Origin: Actinomycetes bacterium
GTDB taxonomy: Bacteria > Actinomycetota > Acidimicrobiia > Acidimicrobiales > Aldehydirespiratoraceae
NCBI GenBank assembly: GCA_024276495.1
Contig: JAJRXC010000023.1
Span: 3,484-67,483 of the forward strand
DNA: 64,000 nucleotides
Reading direction: 5' to 3'
Positions within the stretch are counted from its first letter, which is position 1. The number at the start of each line of letters is the position of its first letter. Below, in pieces: positions 52,937-64,000 of the stretch. Made by a program: the position numbers and the translations under genes. The notes beneath the pieces are model-generated. The model was not told the origin of the DNA and made no database searches. It was given only the letters and a program-made list of their open reading frames with translations.

Positions 52937-55057
52937 TCACCCACCCTCTCCGTAGCCCTCGAAGAGCGACTCCGTCGTGAACCTCCACCGAACGGTTCCC
53001 TGCCGGAACGGGACCGCGAGGTCCATTCCGACCGTGAGCTCGCGCCGGCCCTCGATGACGATGCGCCCGTCCGGTTCGGTGCTCGAAGGCGAGTTCAGCA
53101 TCTCGTCGAGCGAGACCCTCGGTTCCACCGGGCTCAGGAATCCGAACCCGTCGATCAACTGTGTGGTGTAGGGGTCGATCACGAACTCTTCGTCGACGAT
53201 CGAGTCCGAGATGTTCTCGCACGGCACGATGAACGAGTAGATGTCGAGCCGGGTCTGGATCCTGAGGCCGGTGTCACCGACGAGGCGCGGCGGGGAGACC
53301 GAGAACCGGGGCGGCTCGTGGAAGCCGTCGAACTCGAGGCGGGTGGGCGCGGCGCCGCTGGCGGCTCGCCGGATCAGGTCGGCCACGTCACCCGGCCCGA
53401 TCCGCGGCTCGCCGCGGCCGATCCCCTCCACGGTGAAGTCCTCCCAGTACTCGCCCTGGCAGGGCTGATCCGGAGTGGTGAGATCGAGCCGGAATCGCAA
53501 CGGGACGAAGCTCGCGACGTCGGTCACCGTCCCCTCGAGTTGACCGGACTCGGGGTCCACCGTGATCATCACGGATGCGGTCTCGACCCACTCGTCGATG
53601 CCGCGGTCCTCGTAGCGGGCGCCGGGCGGCACCGAGCTGAAGATCTCCCACTGGTCGGGCGCCGGGAACCGGTACTCGATGGTTCCGGTCCACAGGTATC
53701 TGCACTCGAGCTCGATGTCCGTCAACAGGTCGACCGCGTCGCTGATCGCCGAGGCCCTCGCCCCGACCGACGAGATCATCTCTCCTTCGGCGACGACACC
53801 GACGAGGTCCGGGATGTAGTCGCATCGTGGCTTCTTCGCCTGGCGGGCACCGTCGATCACCTCGGAGGCGACACGTTCGTAGGCGTCGCTCAGGACATCG
53901 ATCGCGTCGGAGGCGGTGATGCCGTACTCCCCGCCGAGGGCGATCATCGAGGCCAGACGATCCTTCGTGGCCCGGCTCGGTGCCGAGCGGGCCGCGGCGA
54001 CCGCCGAGTCGAGAAGGGCCTGCAGACGAGCCGACAGCTCCTCGCCGGCTTGTTCCTCGAGGCTGTCGATGGTCTGCTTCAACTCTTCGGCTCTCGCCTG
54101 GGCGTCGGCTTCGGGACTGCCCGAGGTGCCCTCCGAGTTTCCGGGCGGGTCTGACGGCTGCCCGCCCACCGGTGTGTTCAGCGAGAAATGCGGCACCTCG
54201 CACTCGACTCCGGAACCGGCCGGGAGGCACGCGCCGCTTTGCACCCACCGCCCTGCGGCGAGGTCGAACGTCGCGATCGATGTGACCCCGCCGAGCGCCG
54301 TCACATCGTCGAGCCGCAGCGTGAGCGGCGCGGCGGGCTGGACCTCCGCACCGTCCTCGCCGCGCGCCTCGAACGAGAAGACTCGGCTGAGGTGGCCCCC
54401 GTCGACCGGCGCCCACGGGGCCGAGAGGTGCCGGGCCGGCACCTCGGTCACCGTCAGCCAAGTGCCGGCGGGCAGGGCGCCGGCGGGCACGGCCACCGAG
54501 ACGCCTTCGGCCGGGATGATCTGTTGCTCGTCGGATTCGATCACGACCGGTGGCGCGCTCGGCGTCAATTCGACGTCGATGACGTCGTAGCCGCAGATGG
54601 TCACCACGGGGCGGGCGAAGGTCGTGACGTAGCCGAGCGCGCCCACCTCGTACCAGCCCGTCGGATCGGCCGGCCCGGCAGCCTGGCCGCGGCCGTCACC
54701 GGCCTCGCCGTTGACGTCGGGCCACGGCACCAGCGACCCGTCGGCCTTCGTCACGTTCGCGATGAACCGATCCGCCGACGAGGTCGATCCGACCGGCGCA
54801 GCGTCGCCTTCTTCGGAGCCCGGTTGCCCGTCGGTCGACACCGCCCCGTCCGAACTCGATGCCGGGTCGGTGGGGCCGCCGGTTTCCTCGGTGTCCGGGT
54901 CGACGATCGAGCATGCCGCGGTGAGCAGCGCGAACGTCACCAGCGGCACCGCCATCCGACGTCGGCGTGCACCTGCAGATGAGAGCCTGCGCCGCTTGTT
55001 CCACTCCGTTCGTTCGTTCTGACTCGGGTCGGTCTTGTCGAAGACACCGCGCCCCAC
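52937..55057 (-). CDS. large secreted lipoprotein of unknown function
   Basis: Up to 706 aa; likely start at 54955 (MAVPLVTFALLTAACS, lipobox); acidic S/G/D-rich linker then a large uncharacterised domain. Confidence 0.65.
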   Translation of the reverse strand: MGRGVFDKTDPSQNERTEWNKRRRLSSAGARRRRMAVPLVTFALLTAACSIVDPDTEETGGPTDPASSSDGAVSTDGQPGSEEGDAAPVGSTSSADRFIANVTKADGSLVPWPDVNGEAGDGRGQAAGPADPTGWYEVGALGYVTTFARPVVTICGYDVIDVELTPSAPPVVIESDEQQIIPAEGVSVAVPAGALPAGTWLTVTEVPARHLSAPWAPVDGGHLSRVFSFEARGEDGAEVQPAAPLTLRLDDVTALGGVTSIATFDLAAGRWVQSGACLPAGSGVECEVPHFSLNTPVGGQPSDPPGNSEGTSGSPEADAQARAEELKQTIDSLEEQAGEELSARLQALLDSAVAAARSAPSRATKDRLASMIALGGEYGITASDAIDVLSDAYERVASEVIDGARQAKKPRCDYIPDLVGVVAEGEMISSVGARASAISDAVDLLTDIELECRYLWTGTIEYRFPAPDQWEIFSSVPPGARYEDRGIDEWVETASVMITVDPESGQLEGTVTDVASFVPLRFRLDLTTPDQPCQGEYWEDFTVEGIGRGEPRIGPGDVADLIRRAASGAAPTRLEFDGFHEPPRFSVSPPRLVGDTGLRIQTRLDIYSFIVPCENISDSIVDEEFVIDPYTTQLIDGFGFLSPVEPRVSLDEMLNSPSSTEPDGRIVIEGRRELTVGMDLAVPFRQGTVRWRFTTESLFEGYGEGG

Positions 55058-55166
55058 GTCGAACCCCGCGGAATACTGTCCAGCATACGCCCGCGACTCT
55101 CCCGGGCAAGACTCGGGTGGGGTCGGGAAAACGGAAAGAATCCCCGCCGAGGGCGAGGATTCTCAG

Positions 55167-55211
55167 GGGTCGGGCTGAGAGGATTTGAACCTCCGACCTT
55201 CGGTCCCCCAG
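55167..55211 (-). other. partial tRNA-Pro-like 3' fragment (anticodon-loop to acceptor end); candidate att site
   Basis: The minus strand reads CTGGGGGACCGAAGGTCGGAGGTTCAAATCCTCTCAGCCCGAcc. T-arm GGAGG-TTCAAAT-CCTCT, acceptor CAGCCCG with discriminator A (C1:G72 type as in tRNA-Pro). No complementary 5' acceptor strand or D-arm upstream. Confidence 0.55.
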
Positions 55212-55469
55212 GCGCCTAGAGACCTTCTCGCTGCTCCCGCGCCAGGGCAGACAAAACCGCCCCGACGCCTTGTCCCGACTGATCAAGCCCGAGCTTCTCG
55301 ACCCACGGACGTTCACGACCGTTTCGGGTCGTTCTTCGTCGTCTCGCGTCCAAAACGCGTCCAAGGCGTCGCCGAGCGCCTGCGTCCACTTTCCGCCTTA
55401 ACGCTTTGGGCCCGCGCCTAGGTGAGGTACTGTCCGTCGTTCAGACGTTGCGGCGGAACAGGGGCGAAG

Positions 55470-56384
55470 ATGTCGGATACGTCGCAAGGCCAAGGCTGGT
55501 GGCAGGCGACTGACGGGAAGTGGTACCCGCCGACCGAACAACCAGGCAAACAACTTCCGCCTCCGCCCTCGCGACCCACGCCGGTCGCTGTCCCGCCGGC
55601 CGCCCCCGCAGCTGAATCCGGCGGGAATCCACAGTGGGCGGCGGATCTACATCGGTCGCAGTTCGGTTGGCGCGTCGCGTTTCGAGTCCTCTGGTGGGTG
55701 ATTCTCTTCTGGATCGCAGTCCCGTGTTGGGCCGCCACGCTTCCGGACAAGCGTGCGCGCATAGGCGTCTGGATCGCGGTAGCCGTCCTGCTTCTTGCCG
55801 GCGCCCTATCGAACGCCGCCGATTCTGAAGCAGAGCCCGATGCCGCCACTGCCGACACTCCAGCGCCCGACACAGGCACGCCAAGCAGCTCAGGTTCAGC
55901 TTTGGCAGACAACCCGACCAGCACCACCACCACGACGGAGGAACCAGCCGCGACGACCTTCGCCCCACAAACATCAGCGGAGGCAACGACATCCACAGAG
56001 GCACCGGCCACATCGACAACACCCACTGAGCCGACTCGTGATCAGATCGACCAATGGTTCATCGACATGGGCGCTGAAAGCGCGAAGGTGCAGGGCTTCA
56101 TCGACAGCTACGATCGCCTGGAGACCCTCTCAGAGGCCCAGGTTCTGTGCCTGGCCGAAAGAGAGTTGTTCGATATTGAGCGCGTTCGCCAAGTCGCCGA
56201 GCGAGCGCCAACATCCACGATGGCCGAGTTCGGGGCCGGGTTGTTCGATGCCTTTGGCCGGTTCCTCGACGCGTGCGTCGCTGGCGACGCTCCCGCGATG
56301 AGCGCCGAGGTCGCCAACTACGGCGCCAACCTCCGCCACCTCATGGCCGAGGGGGATGCGTGGATTGAAGAGCTCTCCGGCTAG
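55470..56384 (+). CDS. hypothetical membrane protein with N-terminal GWWQATDGKWYPP (DUF2510-like) motif
   Basis: Start MSDTSQGQGWW at 55470; Pro-rich linker, two TM segments, T/S/P-rich region, C-terminal helical domain. Confidence 0.55.
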   Translation: MSDTSQGQGWWQATDGKWYPPTEQPGKQLPPPPSRPTPVAVPPAAPAAESGGNPQWAADLHRSQFGWRVAFRVLWWVILFWIAVPCWAATLPDKRARIGVWIAVAVLLLAGALSNAADSEAEPDAATADTPAPDTGTPSSSGSALADNPTSTTTTTEEPAATTFAPQTSAEATTSTEAPATSTTPTEPTRDQIDQWFIDMGAESAKVQGFIDSYDRLETLSEAQVLCLAERELFDIERVRQVAERAPTSTMAEFGAGLFDAFGRFLDACVAGDAPAMSAEVANYGANLRHLMAEGDAWIEELSG

Positions 56385-56499
56385 AGAACCAACGTAGGAC
56401 GTGCGTTCCTGAGGAAGAACGGGTCGTACAGCGTCGCTGCACGACCGTAGATCCTTGTCGGCCTCAAGTCGGCGAACCTCTCTGGCCCGATGGGGCGAC

Positions 56500-56826
56500 C
56501 TACATGATCCGTTGCCGACGCCGGTCGAGTATCTGACGTTCGGCGAGCGAGAAGCCGCGGAAGGGAGCGAAGTAGGACTGCGATACCTCCGCGTCGATGC
56601 CGAAAGACTCCGTAGATCGCGTGAAGTCTCCACCGTGAATGCGACTGGCGATGAGATGAGCGACTGCGTCTAGGTCGCGGGGCCAGTCCTCGTCGTCTAT
56701 CTCTGGACAGCCGACCCCTCTCGTGTAGGAGCGGATGAGCGCTCGGGCAAGCGACAGCTCCGCCGCGGAATACGCGGTCGACGTACCGAATTCGTGGCGA
56801 AGATCGAACGCGTCGAGAGCAGCCAC
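56500..56826 (-). CDS. phage head-tail connector (gp6-like adaptor) candidate
   Basis: 108 aa immediately downstream of the capsid gene; size, position and AELSLARALIRSYT-type N-terminal helix typical of gp6-like adaptors. Confidence 0.5.
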   Translation of the reverse strand: MAALDAFDLRHEFGTSTAYSAAELSLARALIRSYTRGVGCPEIDDEDWPRDLDAVAHLIASRIHGGDFTRSTESFGIDAEVSQSYFAPFRGFSLAERQILDRRRQRIM

Positions 56827-56831
56827 AACTA

Positions 56832-57713
56832 TCAGCCGGTGATGCCGCGGAGCATGACCACGGCGGCAGGGTTGAGCGATGCAACGTCGTAGCGGGCAAC
56901 GACTCGGATGGCTTGCTGGTCGTAGTCGCCGAACGTTTGGTCGAGGATCTTCACCGACGGGGATAGGTCACGGGCGACGGCGATCTGGGAGAAGTCGGCG
57001 AGCACGATCTCGGACTCGTCGGAACCTGCGCCGCCGTCGATCGGAAGTCGATTGGTGATGGTCACCGGCAGGCCGAGAAGTTGGAACGCGCCCTCGCGGG
57101 TGGGGTCGGGCTGGAGTTGGTAACGGTCCTGGAGGTCTTTGATCTTGCGAAGGTTGACGAAGTCCCGAGAGGGCATGAGCCACCGCATCCGTTCGGCATC
57201 CGCGTTCGATCCCATCGCGAGGCCGACGGCGTCGTGCAGGTCGTCGAGGGCGATCACGCCGACGCCGGTCAGCTCTTGGGTGCCGGTCCAGTTCACGATC
57301 CCTTCTGGTTCGGTGCCGGATGGGGTGCCGCCGTCCCCGGTCAGGAACGCCTGATCGATCTGAGACGCAACGTCGCGCACCATCCGGTCCCGCAACGCGG
57401 CTTCGAGAGCGACGACGGACTGGCGGGCCAGCTCGTTGCTGAACCGGGTCAGTGACTTCACGGATTTCAGCGTCGAGGGCAACAGCGTGATCTCGCCGAA
57501 ACCGGCGTCCACTTCGTCGATCAACTCGTTCTCGCCGTGCCACGACGGCGTCGTCATCGACGTGAGCTTCGGCACCCGAACCGGGGAACCGTCCGTGTCG
57601 AAGATCCGCGGCCCCGCAGCGAGGAACACGCTCGCTGTCTCCAACGGTTGGACAAGTATCGCCTGAACCTGCTCTTGCGTCAGTTCTGCGGCGGTGGTGG
57701 TATCTGCGGCCAT
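56832..57713 (-). CDS. phage major capsid protein, HK97 fold
   Basis: 293 aa; HK97-family pattern (...TLLPSTLKSVKSLTRFSNELARQS...DQAFLTGDG...RYQLQPDPT...LLGLPV...). Confidence 0.85.
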   Translation of the reverse strand: MAADTTTAAELTQEQVQAILVQPLETASVFLAAGPRIFDTDGSPVRVPKLTSMTTPSWHGENELIDEVDAGFGEITLLPSTLKSVKSLTRFSNELARQSVVALEAALRDRMVRDVASQIDQAFLTGDGGTPSGTEPEGIVNWTGTQELTGVGVIALDDLHDAVGLAMGSNADAERMRWLMPSRDFVNLRKIKDLQDRYQLQPDPTREGAFQLLGLPVTITNRLPIDGGAGSDESEIVLADFSQIAVARDLSPSVKILDQTFGDYDQQAIRVVARYDVASLNPAAVVMLRGITG

Positions 57714-57853
57714 TGGCCCTCCAAGGTCTCGAACGGATCATCTCGTTCGCCTTGGCCGCCAGGGCCTCGCAGCGTCTCGTCGGCACCAGGCCGACCCGTG
57801 TGATTATATCTCCTAGAAGGTCAGGCGCTTGTCCATAGAGCAGGAGCGGGGCG

Positions 57854-58567
57854 TTGAAGGACGTACGGGTAGACCGCGAGGGAGACTTCCGATGCTGGAA
57901 ATGCGGAGGCAAGAACTTTCTCGCTAAGCGGACAGGGCGGGCGCACGTCCTTGGCTACGTCACAGTTGGAATCGGGGCGCTGGCCACTCAGAAGAAGCTG
58001 AAATGCCAGGGGTGCGGCAGCTACAACCAGGTCGGCAACGCCAAGCCCTACGTTCGCGACCTTCCGAAACCAAGAGGGATCATCAAGGACACTAAGCCGA
58101 TGAACAAGGTCATTGACCCGGAACTCGTTGGGATCACTCCGGACGACCCAGCCTGGACCCGCGGTATGTCAGACGAAGAGATCCGCGTCATGAACGAACG
58201 CAGGCTTCCGGCCGCTACTCCCAGCCCTGGCCCGGATTCCACGCCTGACGATACGGCGACCGAAGGAAAGTGCTGCCCATTCTGCGCTGAGACGATCAAG
58301 GCCGCCGCCATCAAGTGCAAGCATTGCGGGGAGTTCCTCGCCGACTCGACGAAGTCAGAGTTCGATGTTGTGCTCGTGAGCGCCGGAGAGAATAAGATCC
58401 AGGTCATCAAGGAACTCCGAAGTCTCGTTCCCAACCTCGGCCTCAGAGAGGCAAAGGATCTCGTCGACCATGCCCCGACTCCGGTGGCGCTCGGTCTTCC
58501 CGAGGGTTCGGCCGAGCGCCTCAAACTCTTGCTGGAACATCACGGCGCGATCATCGAATTGCGATAG
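57854..58567 (+). CDS. zinc-ribbon protein fused to ribosomal protein L7/L12 C-terminal domain
   Basis: TTG start with AGGAG RBS. Two CxxC...CxxC ribbons (CWKCG...CQGCG; CPFCA...CKHCG). The C-terminal 70 aa EFDVVLVSAGENKIQVIKELRSLVPNLGLREAKDLVDHAPTPVALGLPEGSAERLKLLLEHHGAIIELR align with the bL12 CTD. Confidence 0.75.
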   Translation: MKDVRVDREGDFRCWKCGGKNFLAKRTGRAHVLGYVTVGIGALATQKKLKCQGCGSYNQVGNAKPYVRDLPKPRGIIKDTKPMNKVIDPELVGITPDDPAWTRGMSDEEIRVMNERRLPAATPSPGPDSTPDDTATEGKCCPFCAETIKAAAIKCKHCGEFLADSTKSEFDVVLVSAGENKIQVIKELRSLVPNLGLREAKDLVDHAPTPVALGLPEGSAERLKLLLEHHGAIIELR

Positions 58568-58597
58568 CCCGATTGCCCCTGAGGCGAAAGTTCTCGA

Positions 58598-59032
58598 CTA
58601 CCCAGCCATGCGACGAAGCGTCCCAGCAAGATCGACGTGCGCCACCGGGTGGCCCTGGCTGCCCTGGTCGATGTCGCCTCGGGGTCGGACGGCGAGGTGG
58701 GGCTTGGCTGCGACGAGGCTGTCGGCCGCGGCGCGTATCGCTGCGGCGTTGGGGAGGCCGTCGTCGTCGAGCAGGGTCGCTGGGTCGGTGAGGTCGAGGA
58801 GGTCAGCCGGGTCGGCAAGGACGCCGTTGAGGGTCGTTCTGAGGGTGAGGTCGAGGAGTCGATCGGCGAGGAGGTCGGCCCGCTTGGCCTTCACCCGGGC
58901 TTCGGCCGCTTCGGATCGGAGCTGTGCGACGTACTCCCGCGGGAACGTCTCGGGCGCATCATCGACGTTCTTGTCGCCGTCGACGGGCTCGTCGCTGGTC
59001 TGGTCGTCGTCGGTGGCTGGGTTGTCGGTCAC
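58598..59032 (-). CDS. phage scaffolding protein candidate
   Basis: GTG at 59032 (GAGGAGA RBS, GTGA overlap with MuF stop); acidic N-terminus then coiled-coil EYVAQLRSEAAEARVKAKRADLLADRL; located between the MuF and capsid genes. Confidence 0.6.
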   Translation of the reverse strand: MTDNPATDDDQTSDEPVDGDKNVDDAPETFPREYVAQLRSEAAEARVKAKRADLLADRLLDLTLRTTLNGVLADPADLLDLTDPATLLDDDGLPNAAAIRAAADSLVAAKPHLAVRPRGDIDQGSQGHPVAHVDLAGTLRRMAG

Positions 59033-59604
59033 TGTAGGTCTCCTCGTAGAACAGGCCCGGGCACGCACGCGCATCCAGGGTGGGAAAACATGTCGGTGTC
59101 GGGCGGCAGGATCGGGCCGAGTAGCGACGTGCAGAGCTTGCAGGGATTTTCGTCGGGAACTCGGGTCCAGCCGACGACCTGGCCCGAGCGGGCCATGGCC
59201 GCGGTCATCGTTGCTCGACCGGCCGACGCGGATTCGTGCTGCACGATGCGGCGCACGGACGCGGCTGCCTGTTCGGCCTCACGAACGAGGGCGGTTTCGA
59301 ACGCGGCGGAGAGACGATCGGCGTCGAGTTCGCTTCCGATGCCGAACGCGGCGACCACGGTGCCGGTCTCGGCTGCGAGTAGATCGAGAAGCGTTCTTTC
59401 GGCGCGGATAGCTTGACGGCGCGCCGACGCCAGGAGTACGCCGATGAACACGTCGATTGTGTCGTCTTCGTCGAGGTCATCGAGATCGAGGGTGCGCAGC
59501 GCGGCCGCGACGGCTGCTTCGGCCTCCTTGGCGAGGGCGTCCTGCCACCGGCGCAGAAGAGCCGTCCCTGCCCGCGACAGGCCGGGGTCGGTCGCGGTCG
59601 TCAC
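59029..59604 (-). CDS. phage minor head protein, MuF / SPP1 gp7 family
   Basis: 191 aa; C-terminal PCKLC...SHPGCACVP matches the C-x2-C...H-P-x-C-x-C motif of the family; follows portal. Confidence 0.7.
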   Translation of the reverse strand: MTTATDPGLSRAGTALLRRWQDALAKEAEAAVAAALRTLDLDDLDEDDTIDVFIGVLLASARRQAIRAERTLLDLLAAETGTVVAAFGIGSELDADRLSAAFETALVREAEQAAASVRRIVQHESASAGRATMTAAMARSGQVVGWTRVPDENPCKLCTSLLGPILPPDTDMFSHPGCACVPGPVLRGDLQ

Positions 59605-60920
59605 GAGATCGCTCCGAGGTCGATGCCGAGGCTGTCGAGGGTTTCAGCGCGGCGAGAAGCGCGCATGGCCTCGATCTGTTGCGGGCTGTAGCCGAGGTCT
59701 TCGGCGAGTTGCGCGAACGGGATCCCGATGTCGGCCTTCTTGAGCGCGGCGTCGGCCGCTTGTGCGACCGTCGGGGTTTCCGGGTCACGCCACACGGTTT
59801 CGAGCCGGTCGAGGCCATGGTGTCCGTCGCGGACCAGCATCGCGAGGCGCATGGCGTCTTCCCATCCTCCGCCGAAGATGCGTTGGCGACGACGAACTTT
59901 TTGCACGAGCCCGGCCTCGGCGGCTCGGATGGCGTCGGCGGAGGCGGGCTGGTCCCGTTGCAGGCCGAGGTACGCGGGAGGGGTGGAGGTCAGCGACGCG
60001 ATCTGGCGGCTGATCTGATCAAGCGCCGCGATGTAGCCGGACAGGTCGGCTTCGGGAAATTGGCCGAATTTCGATTCGGGTGACTCGCTGAGCCAGACGC
60101 GGCCAGCGATTTGGGAGAAGGTGGCGAGTTCGTTGCCGTCGTCGTCGACCGGTAGATCGACACCGGTCATCCATCGCCGCGGCATCGACGCGAATTCCGA
60201 CGACGTGAGGAGATCGGTCGCCAGCTTCGCGGATGCGTCGATGAGCGATATGACTTCGTCGAACTCGGGTCGGCCGTCGAGGTCATCGAGCGATGGCCGG
60301 TTCGCGAACGCGACGACCGGGGTGAGCCCGAGCGGGTTCTCGATCGGATCGCTTCGTTGAGTCCACGCGCTCGCGCTCAACGGTGCGGGACCGTCTGGCA
60401 CCTTCGATTTGGTCTGCCACCGCGTGATCACATCGGGTCCGTACACGGTCGCATACCCGCGCTGCTCTGCCTGGTCGGTCCAAATCTTCAGTGCGACACG
60501 TACGGCGCCGGTGGCCGGGTCGCGATCGGTGATCATCTGCGTCGGCGACTCAGGCCGGATCGTCGGCTGGCCGTCAGCGTCAGCCCACACGCTCACGTAG
60601 GCCCGACCGTGGATAAGCGCCGACTGGTGAACCAGCTGCGATGCCTCATCGAGGGAGTTCGACTGCCAAAAGTCCCACAGGTCATCGACGGCGTCCTCGC
60701 CGACCCGAAACCCGGATACGTCGAGTCGTTGCTCGACCGCCGACACGATCAGCGACGCCCACGCCGGGATCACCGGGAACAAGACCGGCCGAGCCGTCTT
60801 GATTTCCGAAGGCAGCAGCCCGGTCGGCAGACGGCCGTCGTGGTACTTCCGGGCCCGGGCGAGCGCACCCTGCGCCTCGCTCAGCCGCGTTCCGAGCCGT
60901 TCGATCGCCTCAGCCGTCAT
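59601..60920 (-). CDS. phage portal protein (SPP1 gp6-like)
   Basis: Start MTAEAIERL at 60920 (ATGA overlap with TerL stop); about 440 aa; portal-family pattern and position. Confidence 0.85.
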   Translation of the reverse strand: MTAEAIERLGTRLSEAQGALARARKYHDGRLPTGLLPSEIKTARPVLFPVIPAWASLIVSAVEQRLDVSGFRVGEDAVDDLWDFWQSNSLDEASQLVHQSALIHGRAYVSVWADADGQPTIRPESPTQMITDRDPATGAVRVALKIWTDQAEQRGYATVYGPDVITRWQTKSKVPDGPAPLSASAWTQRSDPIENPLGLTPVVAFANRPSLDDLDGRPEFDEVISLIDASAKLATDLLTSSEFASMPRRWMTGVDLPVDDDGNELATFSQIAGRVWLSESPESKFGQFPEADLSGYIAALDQISRQIASLTSTPPAYLGLQRDQPASADAIRAAEAGLVQKVRRRQRIFGGGWEDAMRLAMLVRDGHHGLDRLETVWRDPETPTVAQAADAALKKADIGIPFAQLAEDLGYSPQQIEAMRASRRAETLDSLGIDLGAIS

Positions 60921-62368
60921 CCGATCACCACCATCTTCCTGGAGCGCTTCGCCCCGTTCTGCGCATGCCACGCGGCGCGGTCGAACGCGATGACCGCGCT
61001 GACCGCTGCGTCTATCTTTCGACGACTGTTCTTGCGTTCTTTGGTGATCAGGTCGCCGTGGGCAGTCGACTTCGCCACCGCGTTGCGCATGTGCGTCGCC
61101 AGGACCTGATCGCCGTCATGGGAAACGGTGCCCTCAGAGATCGCAGCGAACAACCGGTCGCACGCCGGCCCCATTCTCGATGGGATATTCGTCGGCAGCT
61201 CGAGAACACGACCGGGCCAGCGTCGGCCCCACTCCTCGATCTCGCTCCGCCAACCCCACGGATCGCAGCTCAACTCGCGCACGTCGAAAGTCTCCATCAC
61301 TTCAGTCACACGATCATCGACATCGGCTCTCGGAACCCGCCACCGAGGATCGTTCGGGGCTTGCCAAGCACCGAGCATGAACAGATGCGGATCGTCGATC
61401 GTGCACCCAACCAGAGTCGTGCTGTCGCCGGACGCTGATCCGTCGAACGCGACCGTGATCGGCCCCTCAATCATCCGTGACGGGTCGGCCAGCGGCTCCC
61501 ACACACCCCACGGCAGCCAAGCATCGAGCACGCCGGTCCACTCGTTCATGTGGTAGCGGCGAAAGACCGCCTCGCGGGTTGTCTCGACGACGGTGCGGAG
61601 ATGCTCGACCGCCAAAATGTCGCCAAGGCCGGGATTGGCTGCTGCCCACGCCGACTCATCACGCACGTCCGCTCCGGGCGGAGCTGACCATTCCCACAAC
61701 CGAATCGACGCGTCACCAGCGCGTCCCTTCTCCAGCAGACGCCAGAGAAGCGAGTCGCGATCGCCGCCCGCTGTCGTCAACCCGAGGATCAGCGGAGCCG
61801 GTCGCGTCCCGGTCGCGAGGGCCATGGCGTCCCACACGGCCTCGTCGACTTCGTGAACTTCGTCAGCAATCGCCATGGTCGGATTGCGGCCCTGCAACCG
61901 AGCGGCCGTCGCCGGGAGCACCTCCAACGACGACCCCGAAGCCGGATGCAGAATCCGCTTCTGGAAGACCTGACAGCAGCCGAACAGCCGGGCGTCGAGT
62001 TCGACCATCCGAGCACACGTATCGAACAGATGCTTCGCCGTGCGTTCATCGGTCGACACAATCACCACCGACCGGCCCTCGCCCTGCTCCGCATCGGCAA
62101 ACAAGCCGAACAACGCCAGACACGCCGCGAGCCCTGACTTGCCGTTCTTGCGGCCCATCGTGATCAACGCCTGCCGAGGCCGATCATCAAACAAACCCCG
62201 CACAATGTCGACCTGCCAGTCACGCAGCCGCAACCGCTCCCCCGCCTCCAGACTATGCGGCAACCGACAAAACTCAGCAACGAAACCGAGCACACGATCC
62301 GCCCCACCCGCCGGAAGTGCCGACAAATCGAGCGATTCGACCGGATCGACCTTCGGACCCGCCCTCAT
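60917..62368 (-). CDS. phage terminase large subunit
   Basis: Start MRAGPKVD at 62368 (GGAGG RBS, ATGA overlap with HNH stop); Walker A-like GRKNGKSG, IADEVHE Walker B, C-terminal nuclease region. Confidence 0.9.
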   Translation of the reverse strand: MRAGPKVDPVESLDLSALPAGGADRVLGFVAEFCRLPHSLEAGERLRLRDWQVDIVRGLFDDRPRQALITMGRKNGKSGLAACLALFGLFADAEQGEGRSVVIVSTDERTAKHLFDTCARMVELDARLFGCCQVFQKRILHPASGSSLEVLPATAARLQGRNPTMAIADEVHEVDEAVWDAMALATGTRPAPLILGLTTAGGDRDSLLWRLLEKGRAGDASIRLWEWSAPPGADVRDESAWAAANPGLGDILAVEHLRTVVETTREAVFRRYHMNEWTGVLDAWLPWGVWEPLADPSRMIEGPITVAFDGSASGDSTTLVGCTIDDPHLFMLGAWQAPNDPRWRVPRADVDDRVTEVMETFDVRELSCDPWGWRSEIEEWGRRWPGRVLELPTNIPSRMGPACDRLFAAISEGTVSHDGDQVLATHMRNAVAKSTAHGDLITKERKNSRRKIDAAVSAVIAFDRAAWHAQNGAKRSRKMVVIG

Positions 62369-62742
62369 TCGACCTCCAGCCGAGTGTGTAATGCGGACCA
62401 AGGCTGAACGGCGGGTCTCAGGGCGGATCGGTTGAGGGTGTCCCCCCTGCCTTCGGGTGTGCGTGGCGTCGCTCCTCGTCGGCTGTTGCAGCTTCTGCAG
62501 ACGACTGCGAGATCGTCGAGGGAGCGGGCTGGCCAGCGGAGGTGGTCGGCGGTGAGGTCTTGGGTTGCTCCGCAGTCCTGGCACCACGGCTGAGAACGAC
62601 GAGCACGAACGCTGAGGCGTCGCCACCGGCTGCCGTATCCTCTGCTGGCTGCGGATGGTCGGCGATCTGGCAGGGCGCAGTCGACGCATCGGCTCGCGGT
62701 GGTCGGCTGGCCGCAGGCGAGGCAGGGCTTGCGGACCGTCAT
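62365..62742 (-). CDS. HNH endonuclease
   Basis: Start MTVRKPCLACG at 62742 (ATGA overlap with the upstream ORF); CxxC...CxxC zinc sites and DLTADHL...CRSCNSRRG HNH motif. Confidence 0.8.
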   Translation of the reverse strand: MTVRKPCLACGQPTTASRCVDCALPDRRPSAASRGYGSRWRRLSVRARRSQPWCQDCGATQDLTADHLRWPARSLDDLAVVCRSCNSRRGATPRTPEGRGDTLNRSALRPAVQPWSALHTRLEVE

Positions 62743-62993
62743 CGCGGCGGCCTTTCGTTGAGCCATGACTCAACTTGATCGCCGAGGTCGTGCTCCAGAG
62801 CGCGGTGGGCGAGCTCGATCAGGCCAGGCTCGACGGCCGCGTGCCCTTCGGGATCGTGGACCTTGCCCCAGTCGCGCACTTCGGCAAAGTCGACGGCCGC
62901 TCGACCGTGCACCAGCTCGAACGCGGCTTGGGCACCCAGGAGCCAGTGGGTCGCCCCTGCGGCAAGCGCCTCGGCGGCCGTATCGGCACTCAC
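62739..62993 (-). CDS. hypothetical phage protein (84 aa)
   Basis: GTG at 62993, GTGA overlap with the upstream ORF; translationally coupled in the packaging operon; no family recognised (small terminase not excluded). Confidence 0.45.
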   Translation of the reverse strand: MSADTAAEALAAGATHWLLGAQAAFELVHGRAAVDFAEVRDWGKVHDPEGHAAVEPGLIELAHRALEHDLGDQVESWLNERPPR

Positions 62994-63571
62994 TGCGCGT
63001 CCTCAAGGATTTGTGTCGCTTCCTCGACAACCTGTTCCCCAAGGTGTCGCTGTTGTAGCTCGCGATAGGCGAAAAGCCCAGGGACATACTTGGCGAACTC
63101 GGGATCGTTGGCCTGAAGCCACTGCAGAACCTCCCAGTCCCCAAGCGGCTCACGCGGGTAGACGGTGCAGAACGCGCGCCATCCGGCGATGACGTACGTG
63201 ACCGCGTCGAGGGCGGCCAGATGCATCGCATCTTCGGCTTCGGCGTTCTTGGACACAGTTCTCCCTATGGACGCACCGGAAGAGGTGTGCCCGTGGTCGG
63301 ATGTTCTTGGGGGTGTCTCACTCGCACTCGATCTCCCAACTGACCCCGTTACTCGGCCAGCCACAGCCCCTGTTTCGTCGGAAGGGATCAGATCCGTCGG
63401 CCGCTGGTCTCCGGCTCCCAGTGTTCCCGGCCTCGATGTCGAGGCTCGGTCGGTGAGCTGCTCCGGAGGGCGGAGGTGCCCCGTGAGGGGTCCGCATTCG
63501 TCCGCTGTGTCCCCGTTGAGGGTTGAGTGAGCAGATTTCGTCCAGCCCTGCTGGGGTTCCATGTCGTTCAC
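62990..63571 (-). CDS. hypothetical phage protein (start uncertain)
   Basis: 193-aa track ORF. The C-terminal about 80 aa (MHLAALDAVTYVIAGW...) look protein-like. The N-terminal half is low-complexity. GGAAGGTG RBS before the ATG at 63571. Confidence 0.4.
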   Translation of the reverse strand: MNDMEPQQGWTKSAHSTLNGDTADECGPLTGHLRPPEQLTDRASTSRPGTLGAGDQRPTDLIPSDETGAVAGRVTGSVGRSSASETPPRTSDHGHTSSGASIGRTVSKNAEAEDAMHLAALDAVTYVIAGWRAFCTVYPREPLGDWEVLQWLQANDPEFAKYVPGLFAYRELQQRHLGEQVVEEATQILEDAQ

Positions 63572-63676
63572 CTTCCGGACTAGGATTAGTTCCGGGCCTG
63601 GCCTCCGTTTCTTGATGGTTCGGGGATTTGGTCTTCACGGCTCCGGGAGTTGCTGCTCTCGGGGCCGTTCTGGTTC

Positions 63677-63880
63677 TCAGCGGCGATTTGCTGCCGCGTC
63701 GGCCTGGGCGCGCTCGTCGAGCCACGCCAGCACGTTCACCATTCGGAAGCGCACGTGCCGGCCGAGCTTCACTGCCGGAGGACCGGTGCCGCTGTAGCGC
63801 CACTCGTAGATCGTGGAGCGGGGCACGCCAAGCCACTCGGCTAGCTCGGCAGGGCTTAGAAACTCCTGGGGTGAGTCCAT
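63677..63880 (-). CDS. helix-turn-helix DNA-binding protein, excisionase (Xis/HTH_17) family
   Basis: Start MDSPQEFLSPAELAEWLGVPRSTIYEWRYSGTGPPAVKLGRHVRF at 63880 with GGGAGA RBS; classic excisionase-family winged HTH. Confidence 0.75.
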   Translation of the reverse strand: MDSPQEFLSPAELAEWLGVPRSTIYEWRYSGTGPPAVKLGRHVRFRMVNVLAWLDERAQADAAANRR

Positions 63881-64000
63881 CGAATTCTCCCTCTGTTCCT
63901 GACGATGCCGACTATTGCGGATGGATGCCGTATCATCCATAGATGGCAGAGAAACGTGCATTCCGGGAACTCCCTCCTCACGCGAAGGCGGGATACCCAA

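Follow-up and report, generated by a model that had tools for sequence, protein, structure and literature searches.

An apparently satellite-like element of an Acidimicrobiia-type host carries an antisense gene fusing zinc ribbons to a ribosomal bL12 C-terminal domain

The window analyzed here, a 64,000-nucleotide stretch of DNA, contains a leftward series of phage genes within which lies a single rightward gene, the candidate of this study (57854..58567, plus strand). In the direction of transcription, the series runs from an HTH/AlpA-like xis (63677 to beyond 64000) through two small genes, HNH, TerL, the portal gene (59601-60971) and VG15 (59029-59604) to the gene for the head scaffolding protein (58598-59074, minus strand; phrog_4708 and phrog_233 matches). 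Past the candidate it continues with the major capsid protein (MCP) gene (56832-57713, minus strand; Pfam Phage_capsid, E=1.7e-39) and a 108-aa gene (56500-56826), after which a terminator-like hairpin is found (56446-56422). The scaffold and candidate genes are convergent, with stops 30 bp apart, and a divergent intergenic region (57714..57853) extends from the capsid start to the candidate start. The original prediction described the candidate as the only plus-strand gene inside the structural operon, which holds for the head operon; however, a second cargo gene on the same strand (55422-56384; GC3 0.71) is located immediately outside it. Host-type genes (GC3 of approximately 0.88) resume at 55057, and the genes of the element have GC3 values of 0.68-0.82.

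No tail genes follow the capsid module in the window, and the integrase end of the element lies outside it. The capsid protein has 51 relatives in IMG/VR (40-68% identity), nearly all on contigs of approximately 9-14 kb with the same gene order; in one of them, L111, a tyrosine integrase is located at one end and host genes lie past the capsid module. Capsids of cultured phages are less than 29% identical to the MCP of the element. Owing to this tail-free gene order, the 51 small relatives, the two ends of L111 and the distance from cultured-phage capsids, the host element resembles a satellite, namely a presumably integrative island of approximately 10 kb that encodes a capsid but no tail. 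PICI-type satellites related to phiRv1/phiRv2 have been described in Mycobacterium (de Sousa et al., PMC10085698).

According to the ORF listing of the window, the candidate encodes 237 aa, with the stop codon included in its coordinates. Its TTG start yields MKDVRVD, in agreement with the homologous N-termini MKDVEID, MEDVRVD and MKNVKVD, and a Shine-Dalgarno-like AGGAG (57840..57844, plus strand) is read in the sequence 7 nt upstream. The protein contains two Cys4 clusters, C14/C17/C51/C54 and C141/C144/C155/C158, along with an additional C140, so that the position, strand and both zinc ribbons proposed originally were confirmed. The protein begins with a basic zinc ribbon, hereafter the N-module (aa 1-68; 57854..58057). 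It is followed by a Pro-rich acidic linker (aa 69-135; 58058..58258), a second ribbon recognized by sub-threshold Pfam and clear PHROG matches (aa 136-167; 58259..58354) and the C-terminal domain (CTD) of bL12 (L7/L12; aa 168-237; 58355..58564). The gene is thus intact and conserved, and its product has four parts: a basic ribbon, a disordered linker, a UPF0547-like ribbon and a bL12 CTD.

An ORF in a scaffold-capsid spacer might instead be a non-functional remnant or a mis-called frame. This would be compatible with the failure to detect a promoter or terminator, described below, and with the fact that the exact candidate sequence is a singleton. However, the frame is open over its full length, a Shine-Dalgarno sequence is present, GC3 is coding-like at 0.73, and the opposite-strand ORF within the candidate (58048-58524) has no homologs. 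Moreover, full-length homologs exist (P0002, P0003 and P0010), and P0002, from an Acidimicrobiales MAG, is 51% identical over 100% of the length and shares the eight zinc ligands as well as the core of the CTD. The remnant or mis-call reading is therefore very unlikely.

The placement of the gene is that of cargo. Homologs of the candidate were found in none of the 51 related capsid elements. The scaffold-MCP gap measures 884 bp here versus 29-609 bp in the relatives, in which this slot is empty in 20 of 43 cases and is otherwise occupied by no more than one short ORF (55-148 aa) of the same orientation; no convincing antisense gene was found there. The candidate also has a lower GC content than the flanking genes (0.60 vs 0.65-0.69) and a lower GC3 (0.73 vs 0.81-0.82). 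Because of its absence from the relatives, the widened gap and the lower GC, the interpretation of the candidate as antisense cargo in a variable scaffold-capsid slot is well supported, in line with the moron-like placement that had been proposed.

Being antisense to the operon, the candidate needs a promoter of its own within 57714..57853. An AT-rich promoter-like region had been placed at 57790-57850, a proposal that our analysis does not support: no sigma-70-like site was found in 57714-57853, although this consensus may not fit Acidimicrobiia promoters, and the GC content of the region drops only mildly (approximately 0.59-0.62 vs 0.64-0.72 in its neighbors). Similarly, no terminator was detected between the candidate and scaffold stops, where the predicted folding of the 3' region is not more stable than that of shuffled sequences (z=+0.77), and late transcription must run antisense through the candidate. 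Since the gene opposes the late operon, its expression would be expected during the integrated state, when the head genes are off.

The C-terminal 70 aa of the candidate are a bona fide bL12 CTD. Pfam family PF00542 was matched with E=1.1e-19, residues 170-236 covering profile positions 1-66 of 67, and a phmmer search against PDB sequences recovered bL12 chains down to E=1.3e-14. In the AlphaFold2 model, residues 169-236 form a beta-alpha-alpha-beta-alpha-beta arrangement with pLDDT values of 85-91. Foldseek superposed this model on the Mycobacterium tuberculosis bL12 CTD (8yeq) with a target-normalized TM-score of 0.94 and an rmsd of 0.7 Å, and on Escherichia coli 1ctf with 0.95 and 0.9 Å. 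The original prediction that the last approximately 70 residues constitute a bL12 CTD, for which failure to reproduce the fold had been named beforehand as one possible refutation, was thus borne out by sequence and by predicted structure alike. ClpS has the same fold as the bL12 CTD. A ClpS-like identity of the domain was considered and rejected, given E-values above 0.1 and target-normalized TM-scores of approximately 0.5-0.6 in Foldseek, as against 0.94 for bL12.

The remainder of a ribosomal bL12 is missing. The N-terminal dimerization and uL10-binding domain, PF16320, had no Pfam match in the candidate at E<=0.1; where bL12 has this domain, residues 1-167 are made up of the two ribbons and the linker described above. 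The L12 equivalog model TIGR00855 of NCBIfam was aligned only over positions 50-124, and the score of 62.2 bits falls short of its threshold of 84.4. Lacking the uL10-binding domain and falling below the equivalog cut-off, the candidate cannot be a normal stalk subunit. Both the loss of the N-terminal domain and the impossibility of normal seating on the stalk had been anticipated.

Sequence comparison places the CTD with actinobacterial bL12 without making it a recent copy. Its closest canonical bL12s, annotated as Acidimicrobiia or Acidimicrobiales, are 58-62% identical to it, whereas those Acidimicrobiia proteins share 75-87% identity among themselves. The CTDs of the candidate's own relatives are even more distant, at 49% identity for P0002, 41% for P0003 and 47% for P0010. 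The candidate CTD has a 5-residue alpha4-alpha5 loop that is also present in a minority of these Acidimicrobiia bL12s. These identities, together with the loop, indicate a CTD of actinobacterial type that, judged against these Acidimicrobiia proteins, is not a recent copy of rplL. The window contains no further bL12 match, and the host rplL is not in it. Recent capture from the host rplL, a possibility raised by the original prediction, was rejected on the same contrast between 58-62% and 75-87% identity.

The divergence of the CTD is unevenly distributed. Identity to Acidimicrobiia bL12 amounts to 75% in the beta1-alpha4-alpha5 half, which binds factors, and to only 37% in the back half, compared with 89% and 73% for the same two halves among canonical bL12s. 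In Escherichia coli bL12, the residues needed for factor binding are K65, V66, I69, K70, R73, L80, E82 and K84; all eight are retained in the candidate, as K181, I182, I185, K186, R189, L197, E199 and K201, respectively. The bL12 CTD is the landing pad of the ribosome for all translational GTPases, and the candidate CTD keeps the surface that bL12 uses for EF-Tu, EF-G, IF2 and RF3. Across 264 non-ribosomal CTD copies, the factor-face residues of helices 4 and 5 are kept at 74-95%, figures that are biased because the homolog set was chosen by similarity to the query. This conservation could partly stem from constraints of the fold. Furthermore, the full-length relative P0003 (205 aa) is without equivalents of I69, K70 and R73, so that GTPase binding is not universal in the family.

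Since the CTD retains the factor-binding surface of bL12, we tentatively propose that the candidate engages at least one translational GTPase off the stalk, with its two ribbons supplying localization or oligomerization; on the present evidence, this reading falls somewhat short of an even chance. Titration or re-targeting of these GTPases, as suggested originally, would follow from the identity of the domain. A different view is that the CTD is an exapted module, serving as a generic interaction or solubility domain with a partner outside translation, while the ribbons carry the function. The strong divergence of the back half and the loss of key basic residues in P0003 are in keeping with such a role, as is the occurrence of the CTD in diverse architectures, including tandem arrays, placements behind signal peptides or transmembrane segments, and combinations with ribbons. 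The N-module, too, has many C-terminal partners (SHOCT, DUF2510 and transmembrane helices), as if they were interchangeable. Nevertheless, the front half of the domain and real bL12 share 75% identity, and the basic surface residues K65, K70, R73 and K84 are kept within the above range in the non-ribosomal copies and without exception in the candidate. Such retention is hard to explain otherwise and favors the ancestral ligand or a mimic of it; exaptation is accordingly possible but doubtful.

In the N-module, the knuckles C14-x2-C17 and C51-x2-C54 flank a hydrophobic insert rich in Gly, Ala and Val (aa ~30-45), which in the candidate comprises 15 aa with a mean hydropathy of 1.58 and ranges from 12 to 34 aa across the at least 58 N-module proteins retrieved. 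The net charge of the module is +10. It matched no Pfam family above threshold, and AlphaFold modeled its ribbon strands with a pLDDT of approximately 80 and the insert with less than 50. A Foldseek search returned no specific structural neighbors, all matches having E>1. Elsewhere, the N-module is combined with SHOCT, DUF2510, transmembrane helices or further copies of itself, and it constitutes an undescribed, promiscuous domain. A basic ribbon with a hydrophobic loop could possibly hold the protein at a membrane; given that the insert is short and modeled without confidence, membrane association is speculative.

The linker is mostly disordered (pLDDT 34-66) and has no Pfam match. According to the alignment with P0002, the two proteins have in common a short helix at aa 107-117 that includes a GMSDEEIR motif. 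A SHOCT remnant was sought in the linker and detected in neither the candidate nor P0002; P0010 has a near-threshold SHOCT at that place. Ribbon 2 (C141-x2-C144 ... C155-x2-C158) is of the CPFCAE..I...A.KCKHCGE type. Its Pfam matches, UPF0547 (E=1.5e-4) and Zn_ribbon_3 (E=1.4e-3), both fall under the cut-offs, and it matches two PHROG families without assigned function, phrog_8032 (E=4.8e-10) and phrog_8436 (E=1.4e-9).

Alternatively, these ribbons might attach the protein to the ribosome at a distance from uL10, through rRNA or a ribosomal protein, the extra CTD then biasing translation as an add-on. The charge of +10 on the N-module and the frequency of zinc ribbons among ribosomal proteins are compatible with this arrangement. 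In addition, mass spectrometry of purified 70S ribosome fractions revealed a peptide of a 418-aa bL12-domain protein of a Salmonella phage (Mizuno et al. 2019, Nat Commun 10:752, PMC6375957). However, affinity purification of ribosomes through a tagged viral bL12-domain protein failed in the same study, which indicates a weak or inefficient association (PMC6375957). The N-module also resembles no ribosomal zinc-ribbon protein, and its fusions with transmembrane helices and SHOCT better fit an envelope or membrane-proximal role. We therefore consider a ribosome add-on improbable.

The distribution of the modules was examined to place the candidate among its relatives. In a search of 1.84 billion cluster representatives, the sole full-length match was P0002, and the order of N-module, ribbon and single CTD is limited to about 4 sequence clusters. 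P0010 and P0122 have a near-threshold SHOCT in place of ribbon 2. In P0024, P0027 and P0072, all three modules recur in permuted order (ribbon 2, CTD, N-module-like ribbon), a recurrence which argues that the three modules function jointly. By contrast with this rarity, the CTD is frequent in proteins other than canonical bL12, with 6743 matches at E<=1e-3, many of them with 2-8 tandem copies. Our own HMM counted 2-7 copies in 84 of the 191 CTD proteins retrieved, and other non-ribosomal CTDs follow signal peptides, transmembrane segments or single ribbons. The original prediction had called the fusion unusual, an assessment that stands for the exact architecture but not for a CTD without its N-terminal domain, which is both abundant and known in phage proteins (PMC6375957). 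The fusion itself, for which a survey of actinophage and satellite genomes had been suggested, was carried by none of the cultured phages, plasmids or IMG/VR sequences searched, in which the N-module or the CTD was matched separately.

The genomic settings of the family are mostly accessory. P0010 adjoins an IS3-type transposase and AbiGi; P0003 sits among an ISL3 transposase, a serine recombinase and a GIY-YIG nuclease; P0002 belongs to a 3-gene islet of low GC3 (0.76-0.81 vs 0.87-0.93) within core genes; and a MazE/PIN pair lies 2 kb from a relative other than P0010. No partner gene is conserved across the neighborhoods of family members. In temperate Gordonia phages, the N-module heads a protein with C-terminal transmembrane helices. 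One of these phages, EnalisNailo, encodes two integrases, a repressor and an excise, and carries its N-module gene (gp17) in antisense orientation between those for the tail assembly chaperone and the tape measure.

Such settings also bear on a role in defense or exclusion, in which the CTD would bait a phage protein that targets the stalk or the GTPases, and the ribbon with the hydrophobic loop would damage the membrane, resulting in abortive infection or superinfection exclusion. The antisense placement is of the lysogeny type seen for the N-module genes of temperate Gordonia phages, the proximity of AbiGi and of the MazE/PIN pair in two relatives is suggestive, and defense-type cargo is common on satellites and prophages (PMC10085698). 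Against this, no PADLOC model matched the candidate, neither a recognizable effector domain nor a partner gene conserved across contexts was found, and the hydrophobic segment is below the length of a transmembrane helix. Defense or exclusion is thus a slim prospect.

Off-stalk binding of translational GTPases is the reading that we prefer, and its benefit to the element would lie in modulating the translation of the host or of a competing or helper phage. Isolated monomeric bL12 CTDs bind factors weakly, and titration would need avidity. That multivalency is important in the wider CTD family is suggested by the proteins with several CTDs in tandem. In a more specific version, the candidate would be a "stalk decoy", a free, anchored or oligomerized CTD that captures EF-G, EF-Tu, IF2 or RF3 and thereby throttles or redirects translation; it would act in the conflict of the satellite-like element with helper or competing phages. 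Taken as a whole, this version is rather unlikely. If it were true, the proteins with 2-8 tandem CTDs would represent multivalent versions, and together these proteins would form a previously unrecognized class of translation-factor sponges in bacteria and mobile elements. A landing pad that is detached from the ribosome and expressed by an element could offer a simple means of manipulating host or rival-phage translation. Conversely, should the CTD bind no GTPases, the family would provide a clean case of a ribosomal domain recruited elsewhere. Detached bL12 CTDs are widespread, keep the factor face, recur with the same two ribbon modules and occur mostly in accessory or mobile DNA, which turns what has been a scattered annotation curiosity into a concrete, testable family.

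The novelty of the candidate lies in how its three modules are combined, in how seldom this combination occurs, in the host lineage and in the placement of the gene as antisense cargo of a satellite-like capsid element; bL12 domains inside larger phage proteins had already been described in 2019 (PMC6375957). Relative to RplL, the candidate has the same CTD fold (rmsd 0.7-0.9 Å) and the actinobacterial-type 5-residue alpha4-alpha5 loop. Unlike RplL, it possesses neither the N-terminal domain nor the Ala/Gly hinge, having ribbons instead, and its gene is flanked by those for a phage scaffold and capsid rather than belonging to an rplJL operon. The tandem-CTD and ribbon-transmembrane proteins (P0123, P0129, P0262 and P0257) likewise have a detached CTD with the helix 4/5 residues kept, often preceded, as in the candidate, by a CPFCAE...KCKHCGE ribbon. 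However, most non-ribosomal CTD proteins carry 2-8 CTD copies or a true transmembrane anchor, whereas the candidate has a single CTD.

The N-module has its own counterparts. The layout of a LITAF/SIMPLE-like ribbon (PF10601), in which a hydrophobic stretch separates two CxxC motifs, resembles that of the N-module, and the hydrophobic stretch of LITAF dips into the membrane. However, the N-module insert is shorter and Gly-rich, structural support for the relationship is lacking, and PF10601 was not matched in the N-module, a Gordonia homolog reaching only 13.6 bits (E=0.078), well short of the 23.8 required. EnalisNailo gp17 is comparable in being an opposite-strand gene in the structural operon of a temperate element, and its N-terminal ribbon module is 49% identical to that of the candidate over aa 1-95. 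In contrast to the candidate, gp17 ends in transmembrane helices and not in a bL12 CTD.

The nearest precedent is provided by the proteins of Mizuno et al. (PMC6375957), which bear out the original statement that virus-encoded homologs of ribosomal proteins are known. A functional study of non-ribosomal bL12 CTD proteins beyond that work was not found in the literature. BFVD lists phage "bL12 C-terminal domain-containing" proteins. In the 2019 study, bL12 domains were variably placed in larger phage proteins, kept the residues that contact elongation factors, and were attributed to multiple independent acquisitions, with their function unassigned (PMC6375957). The candidate is similar in that PF00542 lies inside a larger non-ribosomal polypeptide of a mobile element, the contact residues are kept and the genomic context varies, a variation which points to independent acquisitions of bL12 domains. 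Nevertheless, the earlier proteins belong to podoviruses of Proteobacteria and have other flanking regions without the two ribbons, whereas the candidate combines two ribbons with an antisense position in the head operon of a tail-less element of approximately 10 kb from an Acidimicrobiia-type host, and its relatives occur in non-viral accessory DNA as well.

The host element occupies the window from about 55100 to 64000 and runs past the window end. Its family consists of tail-less, integrative, capsid-encoding elements of ~9–10 kb, whose genes are arranged as int, xis, regulators, HNH, TerL, portal, VG15/DUF6093, scaffold and major capsid protein (MCP), followed by one or two small genes. 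A total of 51 relatives were found in IMG/VR (loci L065–L115), with MCP identities of 40–68%, whereas capsids of cultured phages share less than 29% identity with the host-element MCP. The element looks like a putative capsid-forming satellite of the cf-PICI-like or phiRv1/2-like kind.

Across this family, the scaffold–capsid junction is a variable cargo slot. When the scaffold–MCP interval (window 57714–58597) was compared with the same interval in the relatives, 20 of 43 were found to contain no gene there, and the remainder carried differing small co-oriented ORFs of 55–148 aa, which, judged by eye, seem mutually unrelated. The left edge of the element carries a second + strand gene (55422–56384; 320 aa, GC3 0.71), for which no significant family match was obtained in Pfam, NCBIfam or PADLOC. 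Its product combines an N-terminus rich in Trp with hydrophobic segments and a linker rich in Thr, Pro and Ala, and is probably a further membrane protein carried as cargo. Directly outside the element, a − strand gene (52937–55057) with a host-type GC3 of 0.88 encodes a predicted 706-aa lipoprotein carrying an LLTAACS lipobox-like motif, for which a Pfam search returned no match.

The N-module of the candidate (window 57854–58057, aa 1–68) represents an undescribed zinc-ribbon domain of ~65 aa with a net charge of +10 and a Gly/Ala/Val-rich hydrophobic insert of 12–34 aa between its knuckles. It also occurs at L009 (6001–6573) and L064 (1–219), and at least 58 small proteins start with this domain, its partners being SHOCT, DUF2510, TM helices or a bL12 CTD. 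In temperate Gordonia phages, the N-module gene is antisense and is flanked by the tail assembly chaperone gene on one side and the tape measure gene on the other. Circularly permuted relatives of the candidate were also identified: P0024, P0027 and P0072 begin with a CPFCAE-type ribbon, followed by the bL12 CTD and a C-terminal N-module-like ribbon with a hydrophobic insert, and P0065 has the same two ribbons in that order but is missing the bL12 CTD.

In an Acidimicrobiales MAG, P0002, the closest full-length relative of the candidate, shares an islet with two unannotated genes (L001 8059–10702), with rpmB/rpmG on one side of the islet and murI on the other. Given the low GC3 of this three-gene islet (0.76–0.81 versus 0.87–0.93), its seemingly chromosomal context is probably acquired DNA too.

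Metagenomes commonly encode proteins composed of 2–8 bL12 C-terminal domains in tandem (e.g., P0123, P0124, P0125, P0129 and P0136), and a literature search for such proteins turned up nothing. The arrays, some preceded by a signal peptide or TM segment, retain the factor-binding residues of helices 4/5, and their CTD copies are similar in number to those of the multi-copy ribosomal stalk.
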